A DNA stretch of 40,672 nucleotides from a virus. The stretch is taken from positions 1 through 40,672 of IMG/VR virus record IMGVR_UViG_3300045988_145984; one strand, written 5' to 3'. Below, piece by piece: positions 26,601 to 39,426 of the stretch. Under the pieces are notes generated by a model. It searched no databases. It was not told where the DNA came from and saw only the letters and a program-made list of their open reading frames with translations. The position numbers and the translations under genes are program-made. Position 1 is the stretch's first letter. Every line of letters begins with the position of its first letter.

Positions 26601-29600
26601 GCCTAATGATTTCCGCACATTGAGTGAGAAATTCAGTGACAGTAAAGAGCGTTTTTATCAAGACTGGTTCGATTCGCTACATGCAATAAGGATGTTTGAT
26701 AAAGAGGCTGGTTCCTCGGTGTATATTGATGCAATCAATAGCGCGTACAGCGATTCCATTGCCGCCAGCGTCTTATTTACCGGCTATGTAGATGATGACG
26801 GCAGGCAAATTTCCGGTGGTTTACAGTCTGCTCTTGACGGTATAGACCTCAAAGACAAAAAGACCTATGCCGATTTCAATGAATACTTGGTAGTCCGGCA
26901 CGGCCCGGAGCGTCTGCAAGAGGGTATGCGCATATTCGCAGACGACCGAAAGAACTCTACATCGTGGATGGACACACGCCGCAACGAGCTCGAACGGCAG
27001 CACCCGGAATTCAGCGGAGCCGCAGAAAAGCTATATACATGGCAGCGAGACTTTTTGCATAATTGGGGTGTGAAATACGGCCTCGTTTCCAGGGTGAGTG
27101 CGGAAGAATGGGCTGATCGCTGGCCGAGCTATGTTCCCCTTAGCCGCGTCATGGAAAAGAGCAGATTGCGAGGTGGAACAAGGAGAAGTTTTGCAAATCA
27201 GGATAGCACCATCCGGCGCGCTCACGGTAGCGGACGCGAAATAATCAATCCCATTGAAAGCATCATCACCAATACGGTGAAGATGGTCAATGCAGCCATT
27301 AAGAACAAGGTTGCCCTTGACCTTGTTGACGCCGCGAAAAAGGAGGAGGGGCTCGGCTGGTTGGTAGAGCCCGGCACCCCGCCGATGAAGCGCCAAGTAA
27401 TCGACATGGCAGGAACTAAGCAGGCGCTTGAGAAGGGGATTCAAGAAAGCTCTATGGATGAAGATGCCAAAGAAACAGCCTATGGTATAATTGGTGAGCT
27501 CAATGACTATCTTGTGCAATTCAGCCGCGGAACAAAGGGCTTCGGCAACACAATAACTGTGCTGCGCAATGGCAAACCTGAATTCTGGAAGATAAACGAT
27601 CCTTTATTGCTGGAGTCGCTTACAAATATGTCGCCCCGTCAGGCCGGCGACTTTGCGCGAACCATAGGCACAATCAACCGGCTTATCACTAACAGCATCA
27701 CAGGATTAAACCTTGTTTGGTCGGTAGGGTCAAACACTGTACGTGACTTGGGTACGGCGTTTACATATTCTGAAAAGAGCCCCATTAAACTTGTAAAAGA
27801 GATATTCGCTTCTTACGCGCAGAACTTCCGCAAGCCTGATAAATGGTCGCCCTTCCACAAAGAGTATGTGGCCCTCGGCGGAGGACATGATTCCGCTTTT
27901 GCAACGGATAAGGATATGCCAGATCAAATTATAGGGCAAATGATGGGTGATTTCTGGAAGCACATAGGAAGAGACCCTGCAAAGATTGCCCCCCGTTTGT
28001 TCAATAACACGATAGGCGCCGGAATAGAATTTGTATCCGACATCATAGAAAGCGGCCCGCGTGAAGCAATATACGTCTTAAGCCGTAAGTCAGGACTTTC
28101 CCCCAGAGAAGCTATGTATGCTTCCCATGACATTACGGTGAACTTCAAGAGAGGAGGCATTAAGAGCAAGCAGCTCAACAGGTTTGTTCCGTTCTTCAAT
28201 GCCGGTATGCAGGGATTGGACAAAGAAGTCAGGTTCTTCACCGCCGAAGATGCCCCTCCAGAATTGAAGAAAAAGGTTATCACGGCTCGCCTTGCGCTGT
28301 ATATCGGAGCATATACCGCATTAGGCGCTTTGCAATGGCTCATAAATAGCCGCGACGAGAAATCCCGCAAATACTACGCGCAGCTTTCGACATACACCAA
28401 GAATAATTTCTGGTGCATCCCGGTATATAAGGATGGTGAGGCCACGGGCGAATTTATTACAATCCCCAAACCCCGAGAACTCGCAGCCCCGGCAAGCGCC
28501 ACGTCCGCCCTTCTCGAAAAGTACGCCAGTGGTAACGACGACGCCTTTCGTGACTTTGATGAGTACCTTACCGGCTCGTTCCTGCCAAACCTTGCAGATG
28601 ATGCGGCACAGGGCTTGATTGACCTGCTTCGCGGCGAAGCCACGCCGAAAGACGTCGGGGCGGACTTATTAGGCAACTTCGGTATAGCCGGTATAGCGGC
28701 ATACATGATGGCAAACCGCGACTTTCTTGGCAGGCCAATAGAAAGCGCTGCCTACACCGGTGAAAAGGCAACTCACTATAATGAACGTACCTCGAAGATT
28801 GCCAAGGTTGTCGGTGAAGCCTTTAATTGGAGCCCCATAATGATAGACTACTTTGGCAAAAATGTGTTTGGTGGGTTCTGGAAATTCCAGCAGGCATTAT
28901 TCCCTGTAAATGATGAGGCGCGTGATTTCTCGCTCGGCCTGAAAAATACATACTGGCGCGACAGCCAATATTCAACCGACCTTATCAACACAATGTATTC
29001 TCTCAGGGATGCTGCCAAAACCGCAAAGGATACCTACCCGGCTGATATGGACAAGGCCATTGCTTACAGCGAGAGCAATACAATGACCACGTTCTATTCG
29101 CGTTACAACAAGCTGGCTAAGGATAATCCGAACCGCAATACGCGGCAGATAGTGCTTGATATGATAAACGACTTCAACCGTTCTTTCGGCAGCGACGTAA
29201 GAAGCTACGCGCAGCAAAAGGTTGATGCAGCGGTGAGAAAGGCCGGGGACACGGAAATAATGCCCAATGTCATGCAGACCTTCATAACCGACGATAACAG
29301 CAAGCGCTTCGAACTGACCGCCGAGCAATATGTGGAGTATCAGGGCAAGTTCAATAATCTCTACTGGCAGTATGTCACCGCCGTTGCGGATCAGGGCGAG
29401 GTAGCTATACGGCAGGCGAAGAAACGAGCGAAGAATGAGGCTGACGCCTATATGCTCAAGTTGCTGGGCGGTCACTCCAAGGCCGGGGTAGCTTACGCAG
29501 CTCAAAGCAGCGCGGGTATATCAGCTTCGGACGACCTGCTGTATCAGGCCGCGTTGGATGTAGCAAGAGAGGGCGGTCTTAAAAAGCAGGAGGTATATGA

Positions 29601-29931
29601 CGTCCTTGACCGCATGAGTATTCCAGATAGCCAAAAAGCGGTGTTGTTTGACGGTACTGGAAACTACTCCGGCGCGAGCAATATCTACTACACCGCCGAT
29701 GAGCTTAACAGCTGGATTTATGAGCAGCAGCGAGAAGGACGGAAGGACGGCGATATTGCCAAGAGCATTTCCAATGTGTACAGGGAACTTTATCAGGCCG
29801 CATACGAGGTTGCCGACTATCAGAAAATGAGCGATATAGAGACAAAACTATTCGCTCTCGACCTCACTGACAAGAAAGGAAAGCCCTACTGGACACAAAA
29901 GAAATTCGATGAATGGCTCAAGCCCAAGTAA
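17653..29931 (+). CDS. Giant polyvalent (DarB-like) protein, 4,092 aa: N-terminal Gly-zipper/hydrophobic region, ART, N6-adenine DNA MTase, SNF2/DEAH helicase, HExxH metallopeptidase, and a long C-terminal region with hydrophobic segments
   Basis: Single open frame with SD gaggaggg. Domain motifs are listed as separate features. It sits where podovirus ejection/internal virion proteins are usually encoded. Confidence 0.8.
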   Translation: MAKESLYAHAQKVMKKKEMDDAGNAPRPSDSSQSRDSSEASKGRQSLYSHAQKFVTKREEYKPSAEYQRLQQRPTPKRSVTTSTYEDAAARLLSGNNTGKAKFGNSWDRYLELSHKDTLTAEERAEAKAARKNIESAYGAAGKYQQDLLLADIPQEVMDVYRDLGLKADAATGVAMGFLDALGVDWLSDKVADAMHSDSPRMQSQLARAKAAQGTAFGVGNVAGNLYSMLGINQLVGAGAKAVPALSKLPKYAQTAIKGAATYGIKGAYSGLTNTQTKEEWDRRQQLAAEYYAEQGIDYQPIEYSTWQQVGNIAQSFGLGALSGAAGSVAGDFVGDLGKAVLVKLGWQKPLAEVIRQALASTAHAGASTASTYWLYPEDIRPNKEKIVQDLALSFLFSAATTTISTIQVSKQNKEFLNGAINKMRNDYQTILNSDMSKEAQLAGMDEIIKYNQTIRSALSQNYYAGQQSTINELIRSMDAIDEQINIIKNGVAEGTATSSPASSPNGINVPSGYLPGDSLRKAAEEAAGLSPTPPSPSAPIAPVEPPKVSASDIIPPVVTAETKPVATVLNDVNEPPVDNTEAHDNILAIVEDAGKNNTPYDVVLNTANSSIDNNIVTADEVRSRYEQGLAAYNKTTPPAKADTGDNNAVTDISAFEEAGFKHWQKDDKDRLYISMSKLGLSNEVKDIKGRVKVWLDVPTGEVQATKDTPNSVIEAAQKLVDSVQGKADVAENISTAEKPPVYGSDIAQALEHISRIKYDGLIYSVSGQVNGYYTSITRDDSRADGMISNDRSTIYRGGPFATRKEAAADIAGVYDNNFANNTGSSPTPALQAEAALATMTLEEQGAIRQYKSGSDSYMLNEKLYSGAALSENEKKLADNLDKALDKLPNYKGTTYRVLSFDRQGKEAYDAFIARHVPDMPVNYGAYTSSSKTLDGYDIDCALKVKVEIDGFSGKDVSQGFGLETENEVLYGRTVDYITKSVETTQDGVTVIRIKEANLNDEGILAGREKSVDGSAQGQNTQVRAVQEVEGSKRAEQAGVRGVPERDTQSGIQGGSGSLQGELSGGQRNARNTEGELGGQTHGSTQKRSDEGVYEGQNALAPLRGDGREVLPGVLQTELPVSGSEGAGARLSVLREAGNEGTRRADRNDAAGSSRGRSLGNRQGVAVPEGRGEHEVGLEQEAKAEIERTVTEKPKGANFVIGEKLNLPAGEKARYKANVAAIKIVKNLIAENRYATAEEQEALSKYVGWGGLSSAFDAKKEGWSKEYGELQALLSPDEYKSARASTLNAHYTSIDVIRAMYEGLRHLGFQGGRMLEPSGGIGHFMGAMPADMQGTVKSWTMVELDDITGHIAKYLYPNNDVRIEGFEKAKIPNNYMDVAIGNVPFGNYAITDKTYPGTVTSAIHNYFFAKSLDKVRPGGLVTFITSRYTMDAYDDRVRKYLMDNADLLGAIRLPDTAFKSNAGTEVVTDIIVLRKRAAFTPYKGEAFSEARYTLMGRGGTYVNEYFANHPEMVLGTPEMSGSMYGKDGLTYKALKGDLNKQIISAFKNITGKMEYPKRPTVEKVNRDAAIAEAKGKEGSLVAKGNKIYKINDGQLVEHKTTEKQAATTAKILSIRDTARGLLNMQLQSASEMDIKAARSKLNKAYDAFVKQHGFINAPGNKRLYSDDVDAPFITSLENYDAKAKIGRKADIFSKNTVSPRRTITHADSAIDALIVSVNETGGVDIQRIAELTGNSVDAVSRELLDAELVYKNRDGGYETAEQYLSGNVKAKLRDAEDLLPADKDYQRNIDALKKIIPADIPYHDIFVQPGSTWIPLSVYSDFVSHMLNVYNGGYRPKFKVSYSALTGDYIVQIIDSYVKRSVENTATWGTYDKSFAELFSALLNNRRIVVSHKDAEGRSYVDKAATIAAQEKAEAIKAEFQNWIWQDEARRDTLAHLYNETFNNTVTPKYNGANLTVDGISAAKPLRAHQKDVVQRIIASGGNTLIAHKVGAGKTAEMAAAAMKLRQLGVVKKPMFVVPKSVLAQWGQEFISFFPNAKILLPGEQDFTAKRRREFMNKVATGDYDAIIVSQENFSSIPVSADTEYQFAVQQLTELEAGIEMAVRNGQRNDPSVKQMEKKKKQFEARLEKLNSLRKDEGNISFEELGVDSLFVDEAHSYKNLFYTTNMNNVSGLGNKDGAKRSYDLYMKVRYLQQLNGGRGIVFATATPVMNSMSEMYIMQKYLQSDLLKQRGLETFDAWANMFGEVVTVMEMNPTGKGYRQKESFSRFKNLGELQQMFRSFADVLTDIPGLEIPKIKGGKRTVIVSPPSQYQLDYIEQLAERADKLRGSKVDAKADNMLKITSEGRKLSYSQRIMDPSLPYEEDGKIMKCINNVYDIWQRTKKDKMAQLVFCDSATPKGDQQAEAALFAEDAENVSIYDDMKRQLVLRGIPAKEIAFIHDADTQDKKNQLFDDVNAGKVRVLIGSTGKMGVGMNAQKRLYALHHLDAPWRPGDIEQREGRILRQGNVNKEVEIFTYVTEKTFDARMWDNLERKASFINSIMNGDTNAREAEDVGEMVLSFAEIKSIASGNPLIMEQFEVNAEIAKLTTLKRQHSKAVEEAKFRKSTTEAAIAKAKNALPKAQKDLAARKDISGDNFRITVSGVTFTNRQEAGDAIISAAQNFVTSESSDQQRVIGKVAGFDLLVNRDGDAIIRGEGTYNASIKMENAVRTTRSIESALRSIETRVQVLEENISTWQDNIAKLDSIISTPFERQSDLNKAIARNNEITNILNPPEAEAVVADYDDAETDTIQSMFGDSPDDSDVPHDKWNTQRVGSNSKTTMRISDIIGKMRHDFGIPVGTGRMSRRDVLGQYNTHAHSIKTRIANDLPTVAHELGHHLDNAYRLTSELSKDQQAELVDQLSSAMKEKYKPGELKAEGLAEFVRRYMQNKETAKIDYPLFFTHFQAALSPETLATVDEFADEINAYYSLDVNSAQSSIRPMSEGPNDFRTLSEKFSDSKERFYQDWFDSLHAIRMFDKEAGSSVYIDAINSAYSDSIAASVLFTGYVDDDGRQISGGLQSALDGIDLKDKKTYADFNEYLVVRHGPERLQEGMRIFADDRKNSTSWMDTRRNELERQHPEFSGAAEKLYTWQRDFLHNWGVKYGLVSRVSAEEWADRWPSYVPLSRVMEKSRLRGGTRRSFANQDSTIRRAHGSGREIINPIESIITNTVKMVNAAIKNKVALDLVDAAKKEEGLGWLVEPGTPPMKRQVIDMAGTKQALEKGIQESSMDEDAKETAYGIIGELNDYLVQFSRGTKGFGNTITVLRNGKPEFWKINDPLLLESLTNMSPRQAGDFARTIGTINRLITNSITGLNLVWSVGSNTVRDLGTAFTYSEKSPIKLVKEIFASYAQNFRKPDKWSPFHKEYVALGGGHDSAFATDKDMPDQIIGQMMGDFWKHIGRDPAKIAPRLFNNTIGAGIEFVSDIIESGPREAIYVLSRKSGLSPREAMYASHDITVNFKRGGIKSKQLNRFVPFFNAGMQGLDKEVRFFTAEDAPPELKKKVITARLALYIGAYTALGALQWLINSRDEKSRKYYAQLSTYTKNNFWCIPVYKDGEATGEFITIPKPRELAAPASATSALLEKYASGNDDAFRDFDEYLTGSFLPNLADDAAQGLIDLLRGEATPKDVGADLLGNFGIAGIAAYMMANRDFLGRPIESAAYTGEKATHYNERTSKIAKVVGEAFNWSPIMIDYFGKNVFGGFWKFQQALFPVNDEARDFSLGLKNTYWRDSQYSTDLINTMYSLRDAAKTAKDTYPADMDKAIAYSESNTMTTFYSRYNKLAKDNPNRNTRQIVLDMINDFNRSFGSDVRSYAQQKVDAAVRKAGDTEIMPNVMQTFITDDNSKRFELTAEQYVEYQGKFNNLYWQYVTAVADQGEVAIRQAKKRAKNEADAYMLKLLGGHSKAGVAYAAQSSAGISASDDLLYQAALDVAREGGLKKQEVYDVLDRMSIPDSQKAVLFDGTGNYSGASNIYYTADELNSWIYEQQREGRKDGDIAKSISNVYRELYQAAYEVADYQKMSDIETKLFALDLTDKKGKPYWTQKKFDEWLKPK
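20176..20570 (+). other. ADP-ribosyltransferase (R-S-E class) domain within the giant ORF
   Basis: TYR(20341)VLSF, YTSSS (20431..20445) and ETENE (20542..20556), preceded by LEEQGAIRQYKSGSDSYMLNEKLYSG. This is the order and spacing seen in C3/VIP2-type ARTs. Confidence 0.7.
20651..20884 (+). CDS. Embedded shifted-frame ORF 1 (77 aa, Cys-containing) inside the giant ORF
   Basis: SD aaggagg (20634..20640) then ATG. CGLCKRW...PVCEAFPNGIPRAVFKEEVDHFKENYPGDNG reads like a folded small protein. All 6 Arg codons are AGG/AGA. Confidence 0.45.
   Translation: MTKVFSPDEKNQWTAPLRARTPKCGLCKRWRGANEQNRPVCEAFPNGIPRAVFKEEVDHFKENYPGDNGMLGIPKES
20897..21181 (+). CDS. Embedded shifted-frame ORF 2 (94 aa, helical, TnpV-like by eye) inside the giant ORF
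   Basis: TAGGAGGA, then 7 nt, then ATG; the stop of ORF 1 lies inside this SD. LPHYGEMAERYYREFCKPSYRSL...YQYFEKLGMKALDEQTEMMQQG...AWEIVKEWLFP. Confidence 0.5.
   Translation: MAALRSVLTKEFMKDKMPLPHYGEMAERYYREFCKPSYRSLAAKGPEHVYQYFEKLGMKALDEQTEMMQQGVAEDGAWEIVKEWLFPRGEENMK
21232..22080 (+). other. N6-adenine DNA methyltransferase domain within the giant ORF
   Basis: Motif I LEPSGGIGHF (21595..21624) and motif IV GNVPFG (NVPF at 21796..21807). The lead-in YVGWGGLSSAFD is typical of the methylase-helicase proteins of phages and ICEs. Confidence 0.8.
23548..25170 (+). other. SNF2/DEAD-like helicase domain within the giant ORF
   Basis: Walker A GAGKT (23623..23637), DEAH (24109..24120), and helicase-C motifs GSTGKMGVGMNAQ and QREGRILRQGN. 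Confidence 0.85.
26266..26280 (+). other. HExxH zinc-metallopeptidase motif (HELGH) within the giant ORF
   Basis: The TVAHELGHHLDN context was read directly. Confidence 0.55.
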
Positions 29932-30874: not shown

Positions 30875-31117
30875 ATGAAAATATACGACTACAACGGCAA
30901 GAAGAACATATCCGGCAAGCGAATACGTGAGTGCAGGCGCAAGGTCGGCATGACGCAGGCAGAGCTTGCGGCGCAGCTCCAGCTATCCGGCATTACCCTT
31001 GAAAATAACTGCGTGAGCAGGATTGAAAGCGGCGCAAGGTTCGTCGCCGATTATGAACTCCTCGTGCTGTCCGAGATATTCGGCGTAACCATGGAATATC
31101 TGGTTGGCAAAGAATAG
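30875..31117 (+). CDS. XRE-family HTH transcriptional regulator (Cro/CI-like)
   Basis: ISGKRIRECRRKVGMTQAELAAQLQLSGITLENNCVSRIESGARFVADYELLVLSEIFGV is a canonical HTH_3 domain. It is divergent from the YHYH operon. Confidence 0.85.
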   Translation: MKIYDYNGKKNISGKRIRECRRKVGMTQAELAAQLQLSGITLENNCVSRIESGARFVADYELLVLSEIFGVTMEYLVGKE

Positions 31118-31132
31118 TCGCCAGCATATTAG

Positions 31133-31155
31133 GCATCCTCGCGGATGCTTTTTTT
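31133..31155 (+). terminator. Rho-independent terminator GCATCC-tcgc-GGATGC followed by T7
   Basis: 6-bp stem plus a TTTTTTT run, 16 nt after the XRE stop codon. Confidence 0.75.
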
Positions 31156-31159
31156 ATTT

Positions 31160-31201
31160 TTGGTCAAAAACGGGGAGAAATGACATAAACCGGCCTGTTA
31201 C
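31160..31201 (+). promoter_or_regulatory. Conserved motif copy B: TTGGTCAAAAACGGGGAGAAAT ... CCTGTTAC upstream of the tail-fibre/DGR operon
   Basis: Matches 5621..5655. The only differences are a 1-nt indel in block 1 and the spacer length between the two blocks. Confidence 0.5.
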
Positions 31202-31226
31202 CATCGTGGAAAAAGGAGGCGATGGT

Positions 31227-32999
31227 GTGAATGAAATAATCTACCGGCTTCGCTTAGACTGCTCAAAGCCCGGAACTCAGGCAAGCATATACGTCAAAAA
31301 GGGCGACATAAAATCCCGAAAGCTCTCCATCTCCCTCTATAACGGCTCCACGCCGTATGAGGTGCCGGACGGTTGCAGCGTAGTCCTCAGGGCTAAAAAA
31401 CCCGACGCCACTATCGTATACGATGACTGCACGGTGAACGGAAACGTGGTAACTCACCTTCTCACCTCAAAGGCGGTAGAGGTCTCAGGTACGGTCAAGT
31501 GCGAACTGACGATTTATGGGCCGGATAGCGAGGTCCTGTTCTCTCCGTGGTTCAATCTCTATGTTACCGACCCGCTGTACGAAGATGACGACGTTATCTC
31601 CACCAGCGAATTCAGCGCATTAACCGCTGCCGTAAGCGCCATGACCTCCCTTGCCAACAGGTGGGGCAATCCCAGCGCGGGGGTGAAGGACGGTGAAACG
31701 CCGGGCGTAGAAGTGACAATAAGTGATAATGGCGTGGAATTCACATTTACCCTGCTGAAAGGTGACAAAGGAGAGACCGGCGAAAAAGGTGCGACTGGCG
31801 AGACCGGCGCGACGGGCGCAAAAGGTGCCGACGGCGTAAGCGTTACGAGCGTAGAGCAGACTACTACATCCACCGCAGACGGCGGGGAAAACATCGTCAC
31901 AGTCACGCTTTCCAATGGCAACACCAGCACCTTCAAGGTGAAGAACGGCTCCAAGGGCTCTAAGGGCGATACCGGCAAGACCGGTGACAAAGGAGAGACC
32001 GGCGACAAAGGTGAGACTGGCAAGACCGGCGCGACGGGCGCAAAAGGTGCCGACGGCGTAAGCGTTACGAGCGTAGAGCAAACGACTACCTCGGTGGCAG
32101 ACGGCGGGGAAAACATCGTCACAGTCACGCTCTCCAACGGTAACACCAGCACCTTCAAGGTGAAGAACGGCTCCAAAGGCTCAAAGGGCGATACCGGCAA
32201 AACCGGTGACAAAGGAGAGACCGGCGAAAAAGGTGAGACTGGAACCGGCCTCGACATCAAGGGGACATACGCAACACTCGATGCGCTGGAAGCAGCGATA
32301 ACCTCACCCGCGCAGGGCGATATGTACAACGTGGGCACAGCCGCTCCTTATAACATCTATATGTGGGACGAAACCGTTGCGCCTCATAGCTGGGTAGACC
32401 AAGGGCAGCTTCAGGGAGCTAAGGGCGAAAAAGGCGAAACTGGCGCGACGGGCGCTACCGGCAAGGATGGTAAAGACGGCTTAAACGGTACAAACGGTAA
32501 AGACGGCGTAAGCGTAACGAGCATTGAGCAGACTACCACCTCCACCGCGGACGGCGGGGAAAACATCGTCACAGTCACGCTTTCCAATGGCAACACCAGC
32601 ACCTTCAAGGTGAAGAACGGCTCCAAGGGCTCTAAGGGCGATACCGGCAAAACCGGTGACAAAGGAGAGACGGGCAGTACTGGCGCGACGGGCGCTGCCG
32701 GAGCCGACGGCGTGAGCGTTACGAGCGTAGAGCAAACGACCACTTCGGCGGCTGACGGCGGGGAAAACATCGTCACAGTCACGCTCTCCAACGGTAACAC
32801 CAGCACCTTCAAGGTGAAGAACGGCTCCAAAGGCTCAAAGGGCGATACCGGCAAAACCGGAGCGGTATTCACTCCTTCCGTATCTTCCGCCGGTGTGCTC
32901 TCCTGGAGCAACAACGGCGAATTAAGCAACCCCGCCTCCGTTGACCTTGTGGCGGCGGTAATAGCGGCTCTTCCGAGTGCAGACAGCCAAGCATATTAG
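31227..32999 (+). CDS. Tail fibre with an N-terminal BppU-like domain, collagen-like GXY tracts and four repeated beta-modules
   Basis: GTG start with SD aaaggagg 7 nt upstream. GDKGETGEKGATGETGATGAKGADG triplet repeats. The module VSVTSVEQTTTSxADGGENIVTVTLSNGNTSTFKVKNGSKGSKGDTGKTG occurs four times. Confidence 0.8.
   Translation: MNEIIYRLRLDCSKPGTQASIYVKKGDIKSRKLSISLYNGSTPYEVPDGCSVVLRAKKPDATIVYDDCTVNGNVVTHLLTSKAVEVSGTVKCELTIYGPDSEVLFSPWFNLYVTDPLYEDDDVISTSEFSALTAAVSAMTSLANRWGNPSAGVKDGETPGVEVTISDNGVEFTFTLLKGDKGETGEKGATGETGATGAKGADGVSVTSVEQTTTSTADGGENIVTVTLSNGNTSTFKVKNGSKGSKGDTGKTGDKGETGDKGETGKTGATGAKGADGVSVTSVEQTTTSVADGGENIVTVTLSNGNTSTFKVKNGSKGSKGDTGKTGDKGETGEKGETGTGLDIKGTYATLDALEAAITSPAQGDMYNVGTAAPYNIYMWDETVAPHSWVDQGQLQGAKGEKGETGATGATGKDGKDGLNGTNGKDGVSVTSIEQTTTSTADGGENIVTVTLSNGNTSTFKVKNGSKGSKGDTGKTGDKGETGSTGATGAAGADGVSVTSVEQTTTSAADGGENIVTVTLSNGNTSTFKVKNGSKGSKGDTGKTGAVFTPSVSSAGVLSWSNNGELSNPASVDLVAAVIAALPSADSQAY
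31790..32870 (+). repeat. Intragenic tandem repeats (two units of 222 bp, then two of about 204 bp) with collagen-like triplets
   Basis: gacggcgtaagcgttacgagcgtagagca... recurs starting at 31830, 32052, 32502 and 32706. Confidence 0.85.
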
Positions 33000-33007
33000 G
33001 GAGGTAA

Positions 33008-34111
33008 ATGACAATGGCACAGTGGGCTAAAACAAACACACAGCATTATGAAAATATCGCCGCGGCTATCCGCGCAAAGAACGGCGGCACGGAAACCTAC
33101 ACCCCCGCGCAGATGGCCGCAGCAATAGCGGCTATACCAAGCGGTGCGTCCATAGACGCAGTGAGCGGTTCATCTCTGCCGGCAACAGTGGTTAATGACC
33201 AAGTTTATATCATCACCTCTACTACCCCCGGTACGATATACATTGACACTGATATGCCTTCCAGCCCCGCGAGCGGCGATGCGTGGGTTGTCGTGGCAGA
33301 AGGCGGTGTTGGTGCTATCGCTTTTACGGAGGACAGCCCTTTATTCCGCGTGGGTTTCAAAGCGGTAAAGCAGTACGGCAGCAATGGTAAGTGGAGCAAC
33401 GTAGAGGCTTATCTCGGGGTGTCCGGCGCCTGGGTAAAGATAGGCGTCAGTCTACCGCCTGCCGGAACCCCCTTGAACAACTTCACGTGGGCGCAGATAG
33501 ACTATATCAGCGAAAACGGCCTTATGTCCGATTATTTCAACATAGGTGACACCAAGAACGTTACCATAGGCAGCGCAACATACGTCGTGGAGATTGTGGG
33601 CTTCTCGCACGACGACAGAGCGGACGGCAGCGGCAAGGCAGGTCTGACATTCGGCTTAAAGGACTGCCTCAATACCGCCTACCAGATGAACAGCTCCAAT
33701 ACCAACGCCGGAGGCTGGGGAAGCTGCGCTCTTCGCGCAACGCTGCGCGGCGATATATGGAATCAGCTCCCGTCCGATCTTCGCGGCGTCATCAAAGAGG
33801 TAACTAAAAAAACGTCGACTGGCAACTCAAGCAGCACCATAAATAGCATCAGCGACACCTTATTCCTATTCGCAGAAAAGGAAATTTTCGGCAGTACGCA
33901 GTACTCGGTCAACGGCGAGGGAACTCAGTATGCCAGGTTCACCACCAGCAACACCCGCATTAAAAAGCTCAACGGTTCCGCGACGTTCTGGTGGCTTCGC
34001 TCGCCTCGTTCCAGCTACGGCGACATCTTCTGTGCTGTGAACATTTCAGGTGCAGCCTACTACTACATCGCCAGCACCTCCTACGGCGTCGCCTTCGGAT
34101 TCTGCGTTTAA
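33008..34111 (+). CDS. DGR variable protein 2 (cis target), probable receptor-binding protein
   Basis: SD gggaggt. The C-terminal ATFWWLRSPRSSYGDIFCAVNISGAAYYYIASTSYGVAFGFCV is encoded by VR2. It lies directly after the tail fibre gene and before avd. Confidence 0.9.
   Translation: MTMAQWAKTNTQHYENIAAAIRAKNGGTETYTPAQMAAAIAAIPSGASIDAVSGSSLPATVVNDQVYIITSTTPGTIYIDTDMPSSPASGDAWVVVAEGGVGAIAFTEDSPLFRVGFKAVKQYGSNGKWSNVEAYLGVSGAWVKIGVSLPPAGTPLNNFTWAQIDYISENGLMSDYFNIGDTKNVTIGSATYVVEIVGFSHDDRADGSGKAGLTFGLKDCLNTAYQMNSSNTNAGGWGSCALRATLRGDIWNQLPSDLRGVIKEVTKKTSTGNSSSTINSISDTLFLFAEKEIFGSTQYSVNGEGTQYARFTTSNTRIKKLNGSATFWWLRSPRSSYGDIFCAVNISGAAYYYIASTSYGVAFGFCV
33975..34105 (+). repeat. DGR variable repeat VR2
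   Basis: 131 bp colinear with TR 34591..34721. There are 13 substitutions, all at TR adenines. Confidence 0.92.
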
Positions 34112-34128
34112 TCTGAACTCTAAAAATC

Positions 34129-34147
34129 CCCGCCCCTTGTGGGCGGG
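34129..34147 (+). promoter_or_regulatory. GC hairpin CCCGCCC-cttgt-GGGCGGG, 24 nt downstream of VR2
   Basis: 7-bp stem with a 5-nt loop and no T-run. Its position matches the target-recognition hairpins described downstream of DGR VRs. Confidence 0.4.
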
Positions 34148-34162
34148 AAGCGAGGTAACAAT

Positions 34163-34573
34163 ATGTCAGTACCGAAAAGTAAGCGCACGGAAAGCAGTAT
34201 ACAGTTTTTGCAAACAGCCAGCGAGATCAACCGAATGACGCGAAAGCTCGCAATGGCGCTGCCAAAACGATACACGTTTTTCGGCGGCACGGAGCTTGCC
34301 CATCTTGCGGCGGAGTGCCATCACCACATGAAAGCCGCGAACAGTATATTCCCGGTCAATGCTCATGAGCTTCAGCTACGGCGCGATCACCTCACGGAAG
34401 GAAACAATGCGCTGCAAGCACTTCTCGATGAGCTGGACATCGTATATCAGGAATACCCGGATATGCGGAAACGGGTCGAGAATATTGTTGGTCTCGCCGT
34501 AGCTGAAGCAAAGCTGATATCCGGCGTAAAAGACGCTGATAAACGGCGATTTAAGAATTTGATTCAAGTTTAG
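34163..34573 (+). CDS. avd: DGR accessory variability determinant (Avd-like four-helix-bundle protein)
   Basis: SD gaggt 6 nt before ATG 34163; 136 aa, basic and helical. LPKRYTFFGGTELAHLAAECHHHMKAANSIF resembles the FPKxExF..G.Q..RA..S...NIAEG pattern. It sits between the target and the TR. Confidence 0.7.
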   Translation: MSVPKSKRTESSIQFLQTASEINRMTRKLAMALPKRYTFFGGTELAHLAAECHHHMKAANSIFPVNAHELQLRRDHLTEGNNALQALLDELDIVYQEYPDMRKRVENIVGLAVAEAKLISGVKDADKRRFKNLIQV

Positions 34574-34590
34574 GTTTTGCGCTGTTAAGC

Positions 34591-34721
34591 GTTCCGCGAC
34601 GAACTGGTGGCTTCGCTCGCCTAATTCCAGCAACGGCAACAACTTCTGTGCTGTGAACAATTCAGGTGCAGCCAACAACAACAACGCCAGCAACTCCTAC
34701 GGCGTCGCCTTCGGATTCTGC
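34591..34721 (+). repeat. DGR template repeat (TR)
   Basis: Non-coding copy of the VR sequence, with AAC/AAT wherever the VRs vary (...gccaacaacaacaacgcc...). It lies between avd and the RT. Confidence 0.92.
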
Positions 34722-34925
34722 CATAGCCGGACAAAGTAACCCTTTGGGTGAAATCAGCGCACAAGCAGAAGGAGCGCAAGACCTACCCTCTATGGGGGAA
34801 TCAGGCCCCCGATGTTATGAGCCGGACGTTTCTTGCATGGGCGGCTAATGTGCGATAACCGCTTTCATGGCTACTAACTATGCAGCTACAACCGCACCCT
34901 ACAATCTGCTGTACGGGAGGCCAAC

Positions 34926-36053
34926 ATGACAAGTAACGAACGCCGTGAGGCGCGTTATCAGAGACGCAAGCAGTACCGCGAAGCGCAACGCAGAAAACGT
35001 ATAGCCGCCTGCGGTTCTCTGGATGAAATATTCAGCTTCGAGCACCTATACAAATCCTATAAGCTGTGCTGCTCCGGCGTGGGCTGGAAAAGCAGCGTAC
35101 AGGCGTATAAGGCCAATGCCCTTGCCAACGTATACAAAGCCAGGGCTGCCGTGCTTAATGGAACGTACAAAAGCCGCGGATTCGTCGAATTTGATATCTA
35201 CGAGCGCGGCAAGCCCAGGCATATACGCAGCGTCCATATAACGGAGCGCGTCATACAGCGCTGTCTCTGTGACTATGCGCTGGTCCCGCTGCTCAGCTCC
35301 CGTTTCATCTACGACAACGGTGCATCTCTCAAGGATAAGGGTATAGACTTTAGCCTTGACCGACTCAACCGCCATTTCCGCGAGGCCGCGAAAATGACAA
35401 ATCCCTGCTATGTGCTCAGCTTTGACTTCTCAAAGTTTTTTGATAACGCCAGCCATACGGCGGTATTTGCGGAATATGAAAAATCGCTGCCCCCATGGGT
35501 TACGGCATGGGCGAAATACTTTGTAGGGCAGTTCGGCGACCATGGGCTTGGTTTGGGCAGCCAGGTATCGCAAATATCCGCTCTGGCCTTACCCAACAGC
35601 CTCGACCACATGATAAAAGAACAGCTCGGTATCAGGCTGTATGCGCGGTATATGGATGACGGCTATCTGATTCACTCAGACAAGGAATACCTGCGGTATT
35701 GCCTGCAAGAGATAAAAGCAAAGTGTAACGAGCTGGGGATGAGTACCAACCAGAAGAAAACACAAATAAGTAGGCTGGAAGGCATGACATTTCTGAAAAC
35801 CAGATTTTTCATGTCCAACACAGGCAAAGTAATACGACTTCTGAACCATAAGTCCATAACCCGTATGCGCCGCAAGCTGAGGATATTCAGAGTATGGGTA
35901 AACGAGGGGCACATGACCGCGGCAGAGGCGGTTAACTCTTATCAGTCCTGGCGTGGTCACGCAATGCGTTGCAACACCCGCACAGTTATGGCGAAAATGG
36001 ACGGTTACTTCAACAAGTTATTCAAGATGGAGGTAGGGCAATGTTCAAAGTAA
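34926..36053 (+). CDS. DGR reverse transcriptase
   Basis: YMDD box (35649..35660) and the DGR-typical LGSQVSQ motif of the [ILV]GxxxSQ type (35553..35573). 375 aa. The TR lies 204 nt upstream. Confidence 0.92.
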   Translation: MTSNERREARYQRRKQYREAQRRKRIAACGSLDEIFSFEHLYKSYKLCCSGVGWKSSVQAYKANALANVYKARAAVLNGTYKSRGFVEFDIYERGKPRHIRSVHITERVIQRCLCDYALVPLLSSRFIYDNGASLKDKGIDFSLDRLNRHFREAAKMTNPCYVLSFDFSKFFDNASHTAVFAEYEKSLPPWVTAWAKYFVGQFGDHGLGLGSQVSQISALALPNSLDHMIKEQLGIRLYARYMDDGYLIHSDKEYLRYCLQEIKAKCNELGMSTNQKKTQISRLEGMTFLKTRFFMSNTGKVIRLLNHKSITRMRRKLRIFRVWVNEGHMTAAEAVNSYQSWRGHAMRCNTRTVMAKMDGYFNKLFKMEVGQCSK

Positions 36054-36592
36054 TTAAAAACGGCTCCGTCCTCTGCATGGAGGATTATGCCAGGTATGTA
36101 AGGTTACAGACCAACGGCGTGTACGTCCTATGCAGCGAGAACGAGGCGGACGGGGTTATCGCAAACGATGAGATTCACGCTCTGGACAGCGTGCAGCTCG
36201 TCGAATTTATAGGCACTGTGGAGCTCACCGATGTGCGTACCGAACTCGAGCAGACGATTGCCGACGCCAGGCAGAACCTCATAAGCCCGCCGGCAAGGGA
36301 CGCGCCTTGGAGTGCGGATGTACGCTATGCTGCCGGTGACACTGTGGAGGGTGGCTATGTGGCCCTGCGGTATAACCGCAATAAAAACCCGGCTGATTAT
36401 CTCGGTGTGTACTGGGTTCACGATGAAAACGAGGTGGTAGCATGGGAAAGCATAGAGGACGGCACCATCATCTACGCAGGCGGCATAGTGAGCTACGGCG
36501 GCAAAACGTGGCGCTGTGTCGAGCAGCATATTAAGAGCAGCGTACACAAGCCAAAGACCGGTAGTTCCAAATGGGAAGAAGTTGCAAGTTAG
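36041..36592 (+). CDS. Protein with two CBM5/12-like carbohydrate-binding repeats
   Basis: ATG with SD ggaggt, overlapping the RT 3' end by 13 nt. WSADVRYAAGDTVEGGYVALRY...YWV and YAGGIVSYGGKTWRCVEQHIKSSVHKPKTGSSKWEEV fit the aromatic pattern of chitin-binding-type modules. Confidence 0.55.
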   Translation: MFKVIKNGSVLCMEDYARYVRLQTNGVYVLCSENEADGVIANDEIHALDSVQLVEFIGTVELTDVRTELEQTIADARQNLISPPARDAPWSADVRYAAGDTVEGGYVALRYNRNKNPADYLGVYWVHDENEVVAWESIEDGTIIYAGGIVSYGGKTWRCVEQHIKSSVHKPKTGSSKWEEVAS

Positions 36593-36649
36593 TTGCAAAG
36601 TAAATCAAACCTGCACCAATGCGGTGCGAAAATAGAAAGGAGATCTATC

Positions 36650-37231
36650 ATGAAAAGAATCATCGCAGTACTGACCGCTGTTGTCCTGCTCCTCTGCGCC
36701 GAGGCAGCCCTCGCAATGGACAAGCCATCAATCGTTATCACACCCCTTGACTACCAGACGGGCCGCGTCATAGCCGCCAAAGAGTACAACGAAGGCGAAA
36801 ACTTCTGCCTTCGTGTCGATGTGGATATCCCGCGCTTTGCGGATACTGCTAACATGGAAAAGAAAATAGACCATCCCGGCGCGGCGCTATATCAGGATAC
36901 CGTGGAAATGCGTACCGGCACCTATTACATTACCGGCATGGCCGGACAGCAGCCCGCTTCCGTCACGGTATGCTTTAAGGATTATTCCTACGATAAGGCT
37001 CAGACGGCAGAACAGCTTTACTTAGCACAGCAGCAGGATAAGACCGTATGCGCCACGTTTCGCTTCACCGCCGGAGTGCAGGCGCCGCAGGTGGTACCGC
37101 AGGCGCATGGCACCCTTCAGCTACCAAAAACAGGCGACCGCAGCGATATAGTATACGCTGTCGCTTTAGCCTCCTTGGTAGGTGGAGCTTACGTTCTTGT
37201 ACTGGACATACGGAATAAAAAAGATGTATAA
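36650..37231 (+). CDS. LPXTG-anchored cell-wall surface protein
   Basis: Signal peptide MKRIIAVLTAVVLLLCAEAALA. LPKTG (37121..37135) is followed by a hydrophobic stretch and the RNKKDV tail. Confidence 0.8.
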   Translation: MKRIIAVLTAVVLLLCAEAALAMDKPSIVITPLDYQTGRVIAAKEYNEGENFCLRVDVDIPRFADTANMEKKIDHPGAALYQDTVEMRTGTYYITGMAGQQPASVTVCFKDYSYDKAQTAEQLYLAQQQDKTVCATFRFTAGVQAPQVVPQAHGTLQLPKTGDRSDIVYAVALASLVGGAYVLVLDIRNKKDV

Positions 37232-38153
37232 GCTGGGCGCGTCTCCTTCCCCAACAGATAATAGAGACTTTTCCGTAAGGGTGATGCCTTGTGCGCTGCC
37301 CCGCGAGTACAAGCAGCACATAGGCAGCAACTACCACCAGCAGGAAAGCACCTGCGTCGCGCAGACCTTACGCAATATCATGCGCGAGGCATACGGCACA
37401 GAGTTCGGTACCAATTTCCTTTACGGCGGCGGGAGAAGCCATACCTACGAAGGCATGATACCAGCGGAGGCGGTGAAGTTTCTGAATACCTACGGTATGG
37501 CTCCAGCGCGGTATGACCCTGGCGAAAAAGAGGTGATGGACGTCATTTACTACTACCGGGCAAACCGCACTGTCCTCGAACAGAAGGCAGCTCCTTATAA
37601 GGGCGCTACCTATGCGCGAGCGTATACCGCAGAACAGATAAAAGCGGCGCTGCACAGCGGAATGTATGCCGCGGCCTGCTTTGCCATAAGCCAATGGAAA
37701 CCCGACCGCCACGGAGTATGGCCTTGCATCTCGCCCGTAATGGGATACCACGAAATGAGGGTGTTCGGCTGGGAGCTCGTCAACGGCACGGAATACGCCT
37801 GTGTGCAGAACTCATGGGGCAGCTCATGGGGCAAACGCGGCGAATGCTATATATCGTGGGCGGACGTGCTCCGCTGCAATGACGTGCTTATCATCAAGCC
37901 CATAGAGCAACAGACCCACGATGCGGAGATTCGTCGCACTCTGCGAAAGGGCATGAGGGACGACGGCAATTACGCCGACGTATCAGAGCTTCAGTCATGG
38001 CTGAATAGCAAAGGGTATAACTGCGGAACCGCCGACGGCGTTTTCGGCAGCCGAACCAAACGGGCGGTAAAAGCCATGCAGAAGGCAAACGGCCTGACCG
38101 CTGACGGCATAGTAGGCCCCAAGACATGGGAGGTAATTGACAATGCGGATTGA
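37224..38153 (+). CDS. Papain-like (C1) cysteine peptidase fused to a PG_binding_1 domain; candidate endolysin
   Basis: QESTCVAQT (Cys), GYHEMRVFGW (His) and QNSWGSSWGKRGECYI (Asn) are in papain order. The C-terminus VSELQSWLNSKGYNCGTADGVFGSRTKRAVKAMQKANGLTADGIVGPKTW is a PG_binding_1 domain. Confidence 0.65.
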   Translation: MYKLGASPSPTDNRDFSVRVMPCALPREYKQHIGSNYHQQESTCVAQTLRNIMREAYGTEFGTNFLYGGGRSHTYEGMIPAEAVKFLNTYGMAPARYDPGEKEVMDVIYYYRANRTVLEQKAAPYKGATYARAYTAEQIKAALHSGMYAAACFAISQWKPDRHGVWPCISPVMGYHEMRVFGWELVNGTEYACVQNSWGSSWGKRGECYISWADVLRCNDVLIIKPIEQQTHDAEIRRTLRKGMRDDGNYADVSELQSWLNSKGYNCGTADGVFGSRTKRAVKAMQKANGLTADGIVGPKTWEVIDNAD

Positions 38154-38877
38154 ATTGACTAAGCCTTATACCAGAGGCGCTGATGTGCGACACGTCCAGG
38201 AGCGGCTTGTGGCACACGGGTACAGGGTTGCAACTGACGGTATATACGGACCGGCGAGCTGCAATGCCGTCAAAGCTGTGCAAGCCCTATATGGCCTCAC
38301 AGTAGACGGTATAGTAGACGATAAAACTCTCGCTGTGTTGGACGCTCCTCCGCTGATCATAGTGCAGCCGTCAAAGCACGCCAAGGATCTCGTCACCTTC
38401 ATGCATTCCCTACTGGAAGAAATCTATCTCTGGGGCGGCTTTGGGCAAGAGCTTACCGCCGAGAATGTGAACGCCGTCGCTCTGAAGATGGATACCTCCG
38501 CCGCCAATGCCAGACGCACGGTAGCCCTTTTTGAGAAAAAGGCCAAATGGGGACAGACCAATATGCACGGTTATGATTGTTCCGGTGCGGTATCTCGCGG
38601 CCTATATAAGATGGGCATGGTAGACAAAAAGCGGAACTGCAATCACCTGTGGGATATGTGCGAGGAAATCACCCGCGAGCGGCTAATCCCTGGCGATCTG
38701 CTATTCAGGCAGCGAACCAGCGGCAACAACTATCACGTCGGCGTATATATAGGCGACGGCAAGGTCATAGAGGCAAAAGGGCGGGACGACGGAGTAGTGA
38801 TTCGCGGCATATATAAGTCCGGCACCGGCTACTGGAACAAGTTCGGGCGGCTGCGCTGCTTATACGAAAATGCATAA
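38143..38877 (+). CDS. Endolysin: PG_binding_1 plus NlpC/P60 endopeptidase
   Basis: The N-terminus GADVRHVQERLVAHGYRVATDGIYGPASCNAVKAVQALYGLTVDGIV is a PG_binding_1 domain. Catalytic residues YDCSGAVSRGLY and NYHVGVYIGDGKVIEAKG. ATG 38143 is preferred over TTG 38137 on SD spacing. Confidence 0.85.
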   Translation: MRIELTKPYTRGADVRHVQERLVAHGYRVATDGIYGPASCNAVKAVQALYGLTVDGIVDDKTLAVLDAPPLIIVQPSKHAKDLVTFMHSLLEEIYLWGGFGQELTAENVNAVALKMDTSAANARRTVALFEKKAKWGQTNMHGYDCSGAVSRGLYKMGMVDKKRNCNHLWDMCEEITRERLIPGDLLFRQRTSGNNYHVGVYIGDGKVIEAKGRDDGVVIRGIYKSGTGYWNKFGRLRCLYENA

Positions 38878-38904
38878 AACGTGTGAGGTTAGGAGGGAAA
38901 GCCA

Positions 38905-39201
38905 GTGAATAAAGAATGGTTGTGGTCGATAGTGACCGGCCTGAGTGGGATGGTGTTGGGGTGGGCTGCGCGTATAAAGGCCGACAAAAAGGACTGCGCG
39001 GAGGCGGCAGCTCATGATGCTGCCATTGACACCGCACTCAAATCGGACGTGGACTACATCAAACGCGGCGTGGACGATATCAAACTCGACATGCGGGCGC
39101 AGGCCAGCAAGATCGAGGATATAGACCGCCGCGTCACGAGGGTAGAAGAAAGTGCGAAAAGCGCTCACAAAAGGCTCGACAGCCTTGAGAATAAAGACTG
39201 A
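38905..39201 (+). CDS. Membrane-anchored coiled-coil protein of the lysis cassette (XhlA-like or holin accessory)
   Basis: GTG start with SD aggaggg 7 nt upstream. N-terminal TM WLWSIVTGLSGMVLGWAA followed by a coiled coil. Confidence 0.5.
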   Translation: MNKEWLWSIVTGLSGMVLGWAARIKADKKDCAEAAAHDAAIDTALKSDVDYIKRGVDDIKLDMRAQASKIEDIDRRVTRVEESAKSAHKRLDSLENKD

Positions 39202-39216
39202 AAAGGAGAGAGAAAA

Positions 39217-39426
39217 ATGAAACTGGAACTCACAAACAAAACCTACGACGTCCTCAAAACCATCGCCCTGATATGGCTTCCTGCACTGGGAACGCTGTAT
39301 TTCTCGCTCGCCGGAATATGGAATTTGCCGTTTCCCGAGCAGGTAGTGGGCACCATCACCGCCGTGGATACTTTCCTCGGCGCCGTCCTCGGCATCGCTG
39401 CGGTATCTTATCACAAAGTCAAGTAG
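39217..39426 (+). CDS. Holin (Dp-1 family-like)
   Basis: MKLELTNKTYDVLKTIALIWLPALGTLYFSLAGIWNLPFPEQVVGTITAVDTFLGAVLG has two TM segments and the typical N-terminal YD.LK..A..LPAL pattern. Confidence 0.75.
   Translation: MKLELTNKTYDVLKTIALIWLPALGTLYFSLAGIWNLPFPEQVVGTITAVDTFLGAVLGIAAVSYHKVK

Follow-up and report, generated by a model that had tools for sequence, protein, structure and literature searches.

A diversity-generating retroelement active on two DUF6273 target genes in a prevalent gut prophage

Introduction

The stretch of DNA analysed here at its full length of 40,672 nucleotides (IMG/VR record IMGVR_UViG_3300045988_145984, hereafter the window) represents, in circular form, a prevalent gut prophage that has not been cultivated. 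A preliminary description, made from the letters of the sequence, proposed that it encodes a complete diversity-generating retroelement (DGR), which raises the questions of whether this element is at work, on which genes it acts and what their variation may serve. The DGR proteins of the window were found in 150-300 blocks of a metagenome index, and no match to GenBank phages was returned when the complete window served as nucleotide query. Probable hosts of the phage are spore-forming members of the Clostridia close to Acutalibacteraceae.

Results

Template and variable repeats

Three direct repeats, one template repeat (TR) and two variable repeats (VR), define the element:

34591-34721, + strand: TR, template repeat, 131 nt, with 31 adenines and 12 AAC/AAT codons in the VR frame
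33975-34105, + strand: VR2, variable repeat, 131 nt, with 13 mismatches to the TR
5341-5461, + strand: VR1, second variable repeat, matching repeat positions 9-129, with 15 mismatches to the TR

The TR and VR2 aligned without gaps over 131 nt, and their similarity broke off sharply at both ends. When the mismatches were tabulated by TR base, all of them, 13/13 for VR2 and 15/15 for VR1, fell on a TR adenine and none on any other base; given 31 A in 131 nt, the probability of obtaining 13/13 by chance is 7e-9 (binomial) or 7e-10 (hypergeometric). The alignment agrees with the preliminary description, in which the TR and VR2 were colinear over 131 bp with 13 differences restricted to A, and the eleven codon changes from TR to VR2 reported there are all correct. 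Read in the VR frame, the TR corresponds to SATNWWLRSPNSSNGNNFCAVNNSGAANNNNASNSYGVAFGFC, the Asn-rich template of the AAC type that had been recognised before. Likewise, the one adenine at the 3' end of the repeat at which VR1 had been noted to depart from the TR is the A of TCCTACGG and is included among the 15 mismatches of VR1.

The TR is non-coding and lies in the intergenic region between avd and the reverse transcriptase (RT) gene, 204 nt upstream of the latter. VR2 ends 6 nt ahead of the stop codon of the ORF at 33014-34111, and VR1 ends 7 nt ahead of that of the ORF at 4764-5468, at the C-terminus of the encoded protein. In window coordinates VR1 is located 29.1 kb upstream of the TR, which corresponds to ~11.2 kb downstream going round the circle.

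Reverse transcriptase and Avd

Two protein-coding genes flank the TR:

34926-36053, + strand: DGR reverse transcriptase, 375 aa; Pfam RVT_1 2e-17, PHROG 1423 7e-77, PDB 8ub7_A 5e-24
34163-34573, + strand: avd, accessory variability determinant, 136 aa, pI 9.3; four-helix bundle, AlphaFold pLDDT 81

Both motifs previously attributed to the RT were located, the DGR-specific LGSQVSQ at residues 210-216 and YMDD at residues 242-245, and they align with IGSLTSQ and YMDD of 8ub7_A, the Bordetella DGR RT. The latter is also the best PDB match (E 5e-24), with group II and retron RTs scoring 1e-4 or worse. The (I/L)GxxxSQ and YMDD motifs, together with these match scores, support the assignment of the enzyme to the DGR type and its expected grouping with DGR rather than with group II or retron RTs. 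In addition, the relatives at 41-82% identity all have adenine-biased TR/VR pairs next to them. No NCBIfam model captures the RT, the Avd or either of the two target proteins.

Sequence searches of the PDB with the Avd and both targets, using single sequences as well as profiles, gave no significant match, and a comparison of folds was therefore needed. The AlphaFold model of the Avd comprises four helices, and its top Foldseek matches are 2gsc and 2rld of the IVP family, 4dwl (BPP-1 Avd, TM 0.84) and 8ub7_C, at weak E-values of 0.02-0.2, as is to be expected of a helical bundle this short. The Avd of the window falls under the Pfam and NCBIfam thresholds; among 25 homologues, 10 match PF05635 and one matches PF22296 (bAvd). 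The identity of the Avd is thus supported by predicted fold and family assignment, and the pI, the predicted helices and the structural matches bear out the earlier reading of a basic, four-helix, Avd-like gene between target and TR.

Target genes and their context

The two VR-containing genes differ in their surroundings:

31104-32999, + strand: tail-fibre-like gene with BppU_N and collagen repeats; Pfam BppU_N 5e-10 and Collagen 1e-26, PHROG tail fiber families 1e-40
33014-34111, + strand: target gene 2, 365 aa; an N-terminal domain followed by DUF6273 (Pfam 1.3e-17, residues 224-361), with VR2 C-terminal
4764-5468, + strand: target gene 1, 234 aa; remote small DUF6273 protein, Pfam 2.4e-10, AlphaFold pLDDT 90

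Directly upstream of the VR2 target lies the tail-fibre-like gene, the collagen-like tail fibre gene of the preliminary description, which belongs to the context and not to the DGR proper. Its true start is probably near 31.2 kb, and the length of its product ranges from 301 to 776 aa across samples. Target gene 1 is found outside the structural module, with a VRR-NUC nuclease gene on one side and terminase genes on the other.

Foldseek searches with target 1 retrieved DUF6273, tail-collar fibre and receptor-binding (RBP) proteins of gut phages (2e-13). Compared with the PDB, the target 1 model matched the DUF6273 N-terminal domain of the IgA peptidase 9qa6 (5e-6) and the Lcl C-terminal domain 8q4e (TM 0.63), with weak matches to the CD23/MBP CTLD, and neither Mtd nor TvpA was retrieved. 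DUF6273 has been described as C-lec-like (PMC10743442; bioRxiv 10.1101/2024.10.15.618418). Judging from the weak CTLD and Lcl matches and from these published analyses, both targets are likely C-type-lectin-like. Tentaclins are defined by an N-terminal C-lec domain carrying the VR, Ig-like domains and a C-terminal anchor motif; here the VR is C-terminal in both proteins, no Ig-like domains were detected in either, and both resemble the 'target 2' type of PMC10743442, not tentaclins.

Diversification across samples

The many near-identical copies present in public assemblies make this phage a natural marker-transfer experiment. Diversification was inferred from the differences between contigs of different samples, as a proxy for within-population variation. 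About 25 independent metagenome contigs carry an identical RT or Avd; throughout them RT, Avd, TR and the RNA between TR and RT are intact and nearly invariant, and no two samples share the same VR2 sequence. When VR2 was compared with the TR of its own contig (20 TR/VR2 combinations), 255 of the 261 mismatches were on a TR A, and each of the 31 TR adenine positions was variable somewhere. Specifically, near-identical strains differ at 2-6 positions per 2784 flanking nt versus 6-19 within the 131-nt VR2, and the VR2 differences between strains almost identical in their flanks are all on TR adenines. The proposed hypervariability is therefore strong across samples, at the population level represented by metagenome contigs, and confined to VR positions that correspond to TR adenines.

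VR1 also varies across samples at A positions. Among near-identical strains, the VR was unchanged in 4/6 cases for VR1 versus 0/11 for VR2. When the integrase protein was used to find circular contigs with both VR1 and VR2, 5 contigs and no new pairs were obtained, and a scan of IMG/VR for the junction between the TR and the adjoining RNA returned a single 8-kb contig.

A natural marker transfer is seen in contig ERZ27253213:k141_483574, in which the TR is altered at 23 sites, 14 of them non-A. Its VR2 and VR1 share the non-A changes of the TR and depart from the TR of their contig at adenines only, VR2 at 13 sites and VR1 at 12. As the non-A changes of the template are mirrored in both variable repeats, we conclude that the element is active and writes to both targets. 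Polymorphisms of the TR itself are biased to adenines, one contig showing 8 TR changes versus 3 over the 2784 nt of flanking sequence. Of the 28 relatives examined, 26 have TR/VR pairs with an adenine bias, arranged in the same order.

Spacer RNA, 3' boundary and hairpins

Four further elements surround the repeats:

34722-34941, + strand: structured RNA, Rfam RF03077 (RT-2), 133 bits versus a gathering score of 40, full model matched
34084-34098, + strand: GC-rich segment CGGCGTCGCCTTCGG in the 3' end of VR2, putative 3' cDNA integration zone (compare the (GC)14 of the BPP-1 IMH)
34129-34147, + strand: hairpin CCCGCCC-CTTGT-GGGCGGG, 23 nt past VR2, putative DGR target-recognition hairpin or cruciform
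5492-5510, + strand: imperfect hairpin TCTTCCTC-CAA-GGGGGAGA, 30 nt past VR1, requiring two G-T pairs

The RT-2 RNA begins at the first base past the TR, fills the gap between TR and RT and extends into the start of the RT gene. It occupies the same place in all 20 related loci scanned, and also in Roseburia phage Shimadzu. On the model of the BPP-1 spacer RNA, which has a priming role (PMC6182149), RT-2 would be the spacer RNA of this DGR, positioning and priming cDNA synthesis. No publication connecting RT-2 with DGRs came up in a literature search, and only the original motif paper speculated that RT motifs besides RT-10 belong to DGRs. Neither the RT-2 RNA nor the VR-specific hairpin was in the parts list of the preliminary description.

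Towards its 3' end, the repeat has its last regularly varying adenine at position 108, and at position 124 (window 34099) VR2 has C versus A in the TR in 19/20 other TR/VR2 combinations. The persistence of C at position 124 of VR2 places the usual 3' boundary of transfer inside the GC-rich CGGCGTCGCCTTCGG, with a junction that would normally fall between repeat positions 108 and 124. The last ~26 nt of the repeat had been described as identical in TR and VR2 and as a possible IMH-like region. The identity holds in this lineage but not elsewhere, as position 124 indicates; the idea of an IMH-like 3' region was right in spirit, since the boundary appears to lie in that GC-rich segment, but the 26-nt identity offered for it is limited to the lineage.

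Of 26 related DGR loci, 22 have a fully paired stem of 7 bp or more downstream of the VR and none has one past the TR; such a stem occurs in 2.5% of random windows. The stem sequence covaries, as seen by counting pairs outward from the loop by script (loops of 5 or 6 nt), and the loop CTTGT/CTTTGT is kept across related loci. The sequence AAAAATC precedes the hairpins of both VR1 and VR2, and the imperfect hairpin past VR1 is possibly a weakened target-recognition element. A role of the VR2 hairpin as a terminator was considered and rejected: on the + strand there is no T-run, and on the - strand the structure is terminator-like but its A-run is not kept in relatives.

Comparison with known systems

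The gene order was said to be that of Bordetella phage BPP-1, which proved accurate and extends to the annotated DGR of Roseburia phage Shimadzu. The BPP-1 DGR (mtd-avd-TR-brt) shares with the window a target with a 3' VR, an avd, a TR, a structured spacer RNA and an RT. The RTs are homologous, with IGxxxSQ and YMDD aligned; the Avd has the same four-helix fold, and mutagenesis is adenine-specific on an AAC-rich TR. Both systems also have a VR that is rich in GC at its 3' end, with a hairpin downstream of it (Guo et al. 2011, PMC3240598). The BPP-1 element differs in having a single target, Mtd, instead of two DUF6273 proteins, RT-10 as spacer RNA (PMC5737381) instead of Rfam RT-2, a GRNA hairpin loop instead of CTTGT, and an RT with ~30% identity. 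Furthermore, the TR and VRs of the window are identical or one base apart up to the repeat end, so that an IMH/IMH* pair like that of BPP-1 cannot be seen, and sequence downstream of the repeat seems to provide the discrimination.

The closest annotated cassette is that of phage Shimadzu (LR596903, orf22-orf24), which consists of a tail fibre target, Avd, TR, RT-2 and RT, followed by lysis genes. Identity to the window is 43.5% for the RT, 26% for the Avd and 26% for the target (annotated as a tail fibre protein and DGR target), and a post-VR hairpin with a CTCGT loop is present. In contrast, Shimadzu has a P2-like baseplate and an integrase, whereas the window has a P22-like portal and an IS30-like integrase. 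There is no nucleotide-level similarity between the two, and no second VR was found within the 11 kb of Shimadzu examined.

Two-target DUF6273 DGRs have been described in Faecalibacterium phages Lelie, CP11 and Toutatisvirus and in gut phages nd4/nd12, including one remote target of Toutatisvirus, 17.5 kb from the TR, and variation specific to adenines between related genomes was taken there as a sign of activity (PMC11792537; bioRxiv 10.1101/2024.10.15.618418; PMC10743442). As in the window, one TR serves a large and a small DUF6273 target with the VR at the DUF6273 C-terminus. However, RT identity is only 30-35%, the targets of the window are without tentaclin Ig-like domains or an N-terminal VR, and the adjacent target lies upstream of avd here but downstream of the RT there.

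Discussion

Alternative explanations

Three readings would deny a working DGR. That the cassette is a decayed, inactive relic whose TR/VR differences are fossil traces might be argued from the truncated RT (308 aa) of one related contig and from the fact that one genome alone cannot show activity; yet the parts are intact and nearly invariant in ~25 contigs, VR2 differs in every sample, and strains with almost identical flanks (2-4 differences per 2784 nt) differ at 6-19 VR2 positions, all of them TR adenines, which makes a relic highly improbable. Still harder to credit is a set of ordinary paralogous repeats, diverged by point mutation or recombination without reverse transcription. Three direct repeats at 81-90% identity could in principle be duplications, but 13/13 mismatches on A have a probability of ~1e-9, the bias persists across samples (255/261), the TR lies in non-coding DNA just upstream of a DGR-type RT, and its non-A changes are copied into both VRs. 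The chance that a group II intron, retron or defence RT stands beside the repeats by coincidence is equally negligible: the weak NCBIfam similarity to a group II intron maturase (54 bits), Drt3a and retron St85 is far under the family cut-offs (54 versus 300 bits for the maturase), the BPP-1 DGR RT is by far the best solved relative (5e-24 versus 1e-4), the adjacent RNA is RT-2 and neither an intron nor msr/msd, and the relatives at 41-82% identity all have adenine-biased TR/VR pairs.

A more serious alternative, although an unlikely one, accepts the DGR and questions the role of its targets, which would bind mucus, host glycans or other bacteria, or act on release from lysogens, rather than bind host receptors; the small VR1 protein may not even be a virion component. 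The VR1 gene indeed lies between the VRR-NUC nuclease and terminase genes, outside the tail module, and encodes an essentially bare DUF6273 domain, and for related DUF6273 targets (tentaclins, Hoc-like) non-host adhesion and secretion from lysogens have been proposed (PMC10743442; bioRxiv 10.64898/2026.05.08.723808). On the other hand, the VR2 target stands directly past the BppU_N/collagen fibre gene and resembles the annotated Shimadzu tail fibre target, and receptor-binding and tail-collar fibre proteins are among the structural matches.

Proposed mechanism

In conclusion, we consider it very likely that the window carries a complete, currently active DGR of a temperate Clostridia gut phage, the mechanism outlined here included. 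By analogy with BPP-1, transcription would cover the TR and the RT-2 RNA next to it, and a complex of RT and Avd would copy the TR into cDNA with misincorporation opposite adenines only. The population comparison shows that the cDNA then replaces the homologous VR, which is 3'-terminal in each of the two DUF6273 genes. Targeting would depend on the GC-rich 3' end of the repeat and on the VR-specific hairpin downstream of it; as this hairpin is missing from the TR, information would flow only from TR to VR. Up to ~3e16 variants of the protein would result, differing on the ligand-binding face of a C-type-lectin-like domain, and the purpose would most likely be to vary virion receptor binding, be it tropism, the role suggested in the preliminary description, or adhesion.

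A more speculative extension, which we think doubtful, is that the two targets differ in how fast they are rewritten and in what their variation is for, and that protection of the TR is leaky. VR2, with its canonical hairpin, may be rewritten constantly, and VR1, with its degenerate one, may turn over more slowly; the VR1 protein, a bare DUF6273 domain whose gene stands among those for replication and packaging, may be something other than a receptor-binding protein of the virion; and the TR appears occasionally to receive an adenine-mutagenised copy. If this were true, template protection would be leaky where the 3' ends of TR and VR are the same.

Significance

The DGR is clear and complete, an ordinary member of a well-known system, and leaves the DGR concept unchanged; two-target DUF6273 DGRs in gut phages, remote targets included, are already described (PMC11792537; bioRxiv 10.1101/2024.10.15.618418; PMC10743442). 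The new details are small. The natural marker transfer shows where information transfer stops on the 3' side, a clade of Clostridia-phage DGRs would use the Rfam RT-2 RNA as spacer, and the clade-specific CTTGT/CTTTGT loop of the VR-specific hairpin differs from the GRNA of BPP-1-type elements. The value of the finding is chiefly one of annotation, namely a DGR demonstrably active on two targets by cross-sample comparison, and the RT-2, hairpin and boundary details could aid DGR-based diversification tools for Gram-positive hosts.

Adenine-specific differences between the repeats

The template repeat (TR, 34591-34721) and the variable repeat VR2 (33975-34105, in target gene 2, 33014-34111) align without gaps over 131 nt, with similarity stopping abruptly at both edges. 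They differ at 13 positions, 13/13 being adenines in the TR, which has a chance probability of 7e-9 (binomial) or 7e-10 (hypergeometric), given 31 adenines in 131 nt; read in the VR frame, the TR holds 12 Asn codons. A preliminary description had proposed a complete diversity-generating retroelement (DGR) with adenine-only mismatches: this restriction and all the codon changes it listed are correct on our alignment, and its overall interpretation is supported. A repeat search also located a third copy, VR1, at the C-terminus of the ORF 4764-5468 (target gene 1), homologous to the TR over repeat positions 9-129 (window 5341-5461) and showing 15 differences, 15/15 at TR adenines. Since the window carries 55 identical nt at its two ends, it is a circular assembly of 40,617 bp, which puts VR1 some 11.2 kb 3' of the TR.

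Reverse transcriptase, Avd and spacer RNA

The region 32400-36600 was read and its ORFs were listed. The components flanking the TR are:

34163-34573, Avd ORF (136 aa; pI 9.3, basic)
34722-34941, spacer RNA (full-length match to Rfam RF03077, RT-2 RNA, 133 bits)
34926-36053, reverse transcriptase (RT; Pfam RVT_1)

The closest solved relative of the RT is 8ub7_A (E 5e-24), labelled in the structure library as a diversity-generating retroelement ribonucleoprotein reverse transcriptase; no group II intron or retron chain does better than 1e-4. The motifs LGSQVSQ and YMDD, on which a DGR-type enzyme had been proposed, align to IGSLTSQ and YMDD of 8ub7_A. Assignments to group II, Drt or retron types were rejected, their NCBIfam scores being far under the model cut-offs.

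The Avd ORF itself gave no direct match in Pfam, NCBIfam or PDB sequence searches; among its homologues, 10/25 match PF05635 and one matches PF22296 (bAvd). Its AlphaFold model is a four-helix bundle (pLDDT 81), which in structural comparison ranks closest to two 23S-rRNA-IVP family proteins, BPP-1 Avd (4dwl, TM 0.84) and the Avd chains of 8ub7 and 8ub8, in agreement with the basic four-helix Avd-like gene described previously. The RT-2 RNA match fills the entire gap between TR and RT.

By analogy with BPP-1 biochemistry (PMC6182149, PMC5703328), RT-Avd would copy the TR-RT-2 transcript into cDNA, primed within the spacer.

Relatives and known systems

Among annotated phages, Roseburia phage Shimadzu is the closest, with an RT of 43.5% identity. 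Tail fibre, Avd and RT are annotated in this order in its record, and its TR/VR pair of 129 nt and RT-2 RNA are positioned as in the window. In a GTDB search using one genome per species, the RT family (41-82% identity) was found across Clostridia MAGs, the nearest being an Acutalibacteraceae bacterium. An adenine-biased repeat pair precedes the RT at the same spacing in 26/28 GTDB loci, and RT-2 RNA, starting within a few nt of the TR end, is present in 20/20 loci scanned. The BPP-1 spacer was found to contain RT-10 by Weinberg et al. 2017, who speculated that further DGRs might use the remaining RT motifs (PMC5737381); our data assign RT-2 RNA to the DGR clade of the window. Published DGRs of Faecalibacterium phages Lelie and CP11, Toutatisvirus, and phages nd4 and nd12 pair a large DUF6273 target with a small one or have a target at a remote position (PMC11792537; bioRxiv 10.1101/2024.10.15.618418; PMC10743442), and therefore the present DGR belongs to a known kind. 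One related locus, L047, shows a type II hammerhead ribozyme match downstream of its DGR (7035-7099).

Activity across samples

An exact-protein look-up retrieved about 25 independent contigs from metagenomes in which the RT, the Avd or neighbouring proteins are identical. VR2 was different in every sample, no two being alike. Among 20 distinct TR/VR2 combinations, 255/261 mismatches between VR2 and its own TR fall at TR adenines, the six exceptions being confined to two contigs with a changed TR (L008 and L028), and all 31 adenine positions vary somewhere. Contigs with 2-6 differences from the window in 2784 flanking positions show 6-19 differences in the 131 VR2 positions.

VR1 also varies at adenine positions: two contigs with 3-5 differences in 4269 flanking positions show 15 in VR1, and four further near-identical contigs show none. 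The proportion of unchanged repeats (4/6 for VR1 versus 0/11 for VR2; Fisher p = 0.006, with samples partly non-independent) is suggestive of a slower turnover of VR1.

The contig ERZ27253213:k141_483574, from a divergent lineage, constitutes a natural marker-transfer experiment. Its TR differs at 23 positions, 14 of them non-adenine; because its VR2 and VR1 share the non-adenine changes and depart from their own TR at adenines alone (13 and 12 sites, respectively), it shows a TR-to-VR flow into both targets. In conclusion, these data show that the two VRs are rewritten from one TR in an adenine-specific, unidirectional and ongoing manner.

The TR itself shows some variation from sample to sample (L008, L012, L015-L019, L028): 8/11 polymorphic sites are adenines (binomial p 8e-4), and L008 has eight TR changes, with five adenines lost, versus three changes in 2784 flanking nt. 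This pattern could mean either that constraint is relaxed at the adenine sites or that mutagenised cDNA on rare occasions homes into the TR.

The GC-rich repeat end and the downstream hairpin

All TRs have A at repeat position 124 (window 34099), where VR2 has C in 19/20 combinations and A solely in the window lineage. As position 124 stays C in VR2 while the neighbouring adenine at position 108 varies, the usual 3' transfer limit lies within CGGCGTCGCCTTCGG (34084-34098), a stretch comparable to the (GC)14 element of the BPP-1 IMH (PMC3240598). It is followed by:

34129-34147, hairpin CCCGCCC-CTTGT-GGGCGGG, 23 nt 3' of VR2

Perfect stems of 7 bp or more occur in 22/26 VR-downstream windows of the clade, compared to 2.5% of random windows and 0/26 TR-downstream windows. 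The stems show covariation in sequence, and 15/22 have a CTTGT or CTTTGT loop; two more distant relatives, L070 and L074, carry a GAAA loop (BPP-1-type GRNA loop) after the VR (about 2118-2160). The hairpin and the GC-rich repeat end may together direct cDNA integration. VR1 has only an imperfect counterpart (5492-5510), consistent with its apparently slower turnover.

Phage integration and other modules

The host integration site differs in every contig (loci L023-L041, L097), adjoining dnaA, rpoBC, gerA, uvrC and other genes. The phage ends (window 1-55 and 40560-40672), TGCGAATTG... and ...CAAACGCC, carry imperfect terminal inverted repeats, with a 15-bp target-site duplication in two cases and a 2-nt spacer (TG) at the circular junction. 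The integrase (39535-40572) is an IS30-like DDE enzyme (HTH_23/HTH_38/rve), and lysogeny looks transposase-mediated.

A single 4092-aa ORF (17653-29931), 30% of the genome, separates the head/tail genes from the fibre-DGR module and contains WH_1, SNF2/ResIII helicase, DUF8437 and LPD38 (large polyvalent protein) domains. Directly 3' of the DGR, the lysis module (37182-39400) encodes two endolysins (Peptidase_C1 + PG_binding_1; PG_binding_1 + NLPC_P60) and a Dp1-type holin; the head module includes a P22-type portal and a Prp-like protease, consistent with a Firmicutes phage.

Fibre genes and DGR targets

The fibre gene (31104-32999) contains four copies of a 275-nt repeat (31758-32908; identity to the reference copy 73-100%), which codes for collagen triplets together with a beta-rich module. 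Among otherwise near-identical phages, the length of the fibre protein varies between 301 and 776 aa, and repeat number is therefore a second source of variation beside the DGR. An AAxIAAxPS motif, common to the fibre C-terminus (VAAVIAALPSA, 32940-32999) and the VR2-target N-terminus (MAAAIAAIPSG, 33014-33140), may represent a common docking segment. A 183-aa ORF (36041-36592), overlapping the RT stop by 13 nt, has a weak match to the carbohydrate-binding domain CBM_5_12 and a wider metagenome spread than the RT (312 versus 152 index blocks); it may encode one more fibre-module protein with a binding role.

In each of the two targets, the VR sits at the C-terminal end of a Pfam DUF6273 domain. 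The small target (234 aa) gave a confident model (pLDDT 90), which matches gut-phage proteins of the DUF6273, tail-collar fibre and receptor-binding types, as well as the DUF6273 N-terminal domain of an IgA peptidase and the Lcl C-terminal domain; C-type lectin domains match weakly. The gene preceding the VR2 target combines a BppU_N domain with collagen repeats and strongly matches tail-fibre families in PHROG. From gene position and fold, we infer that the DGR targets are receptor-binding proteins.
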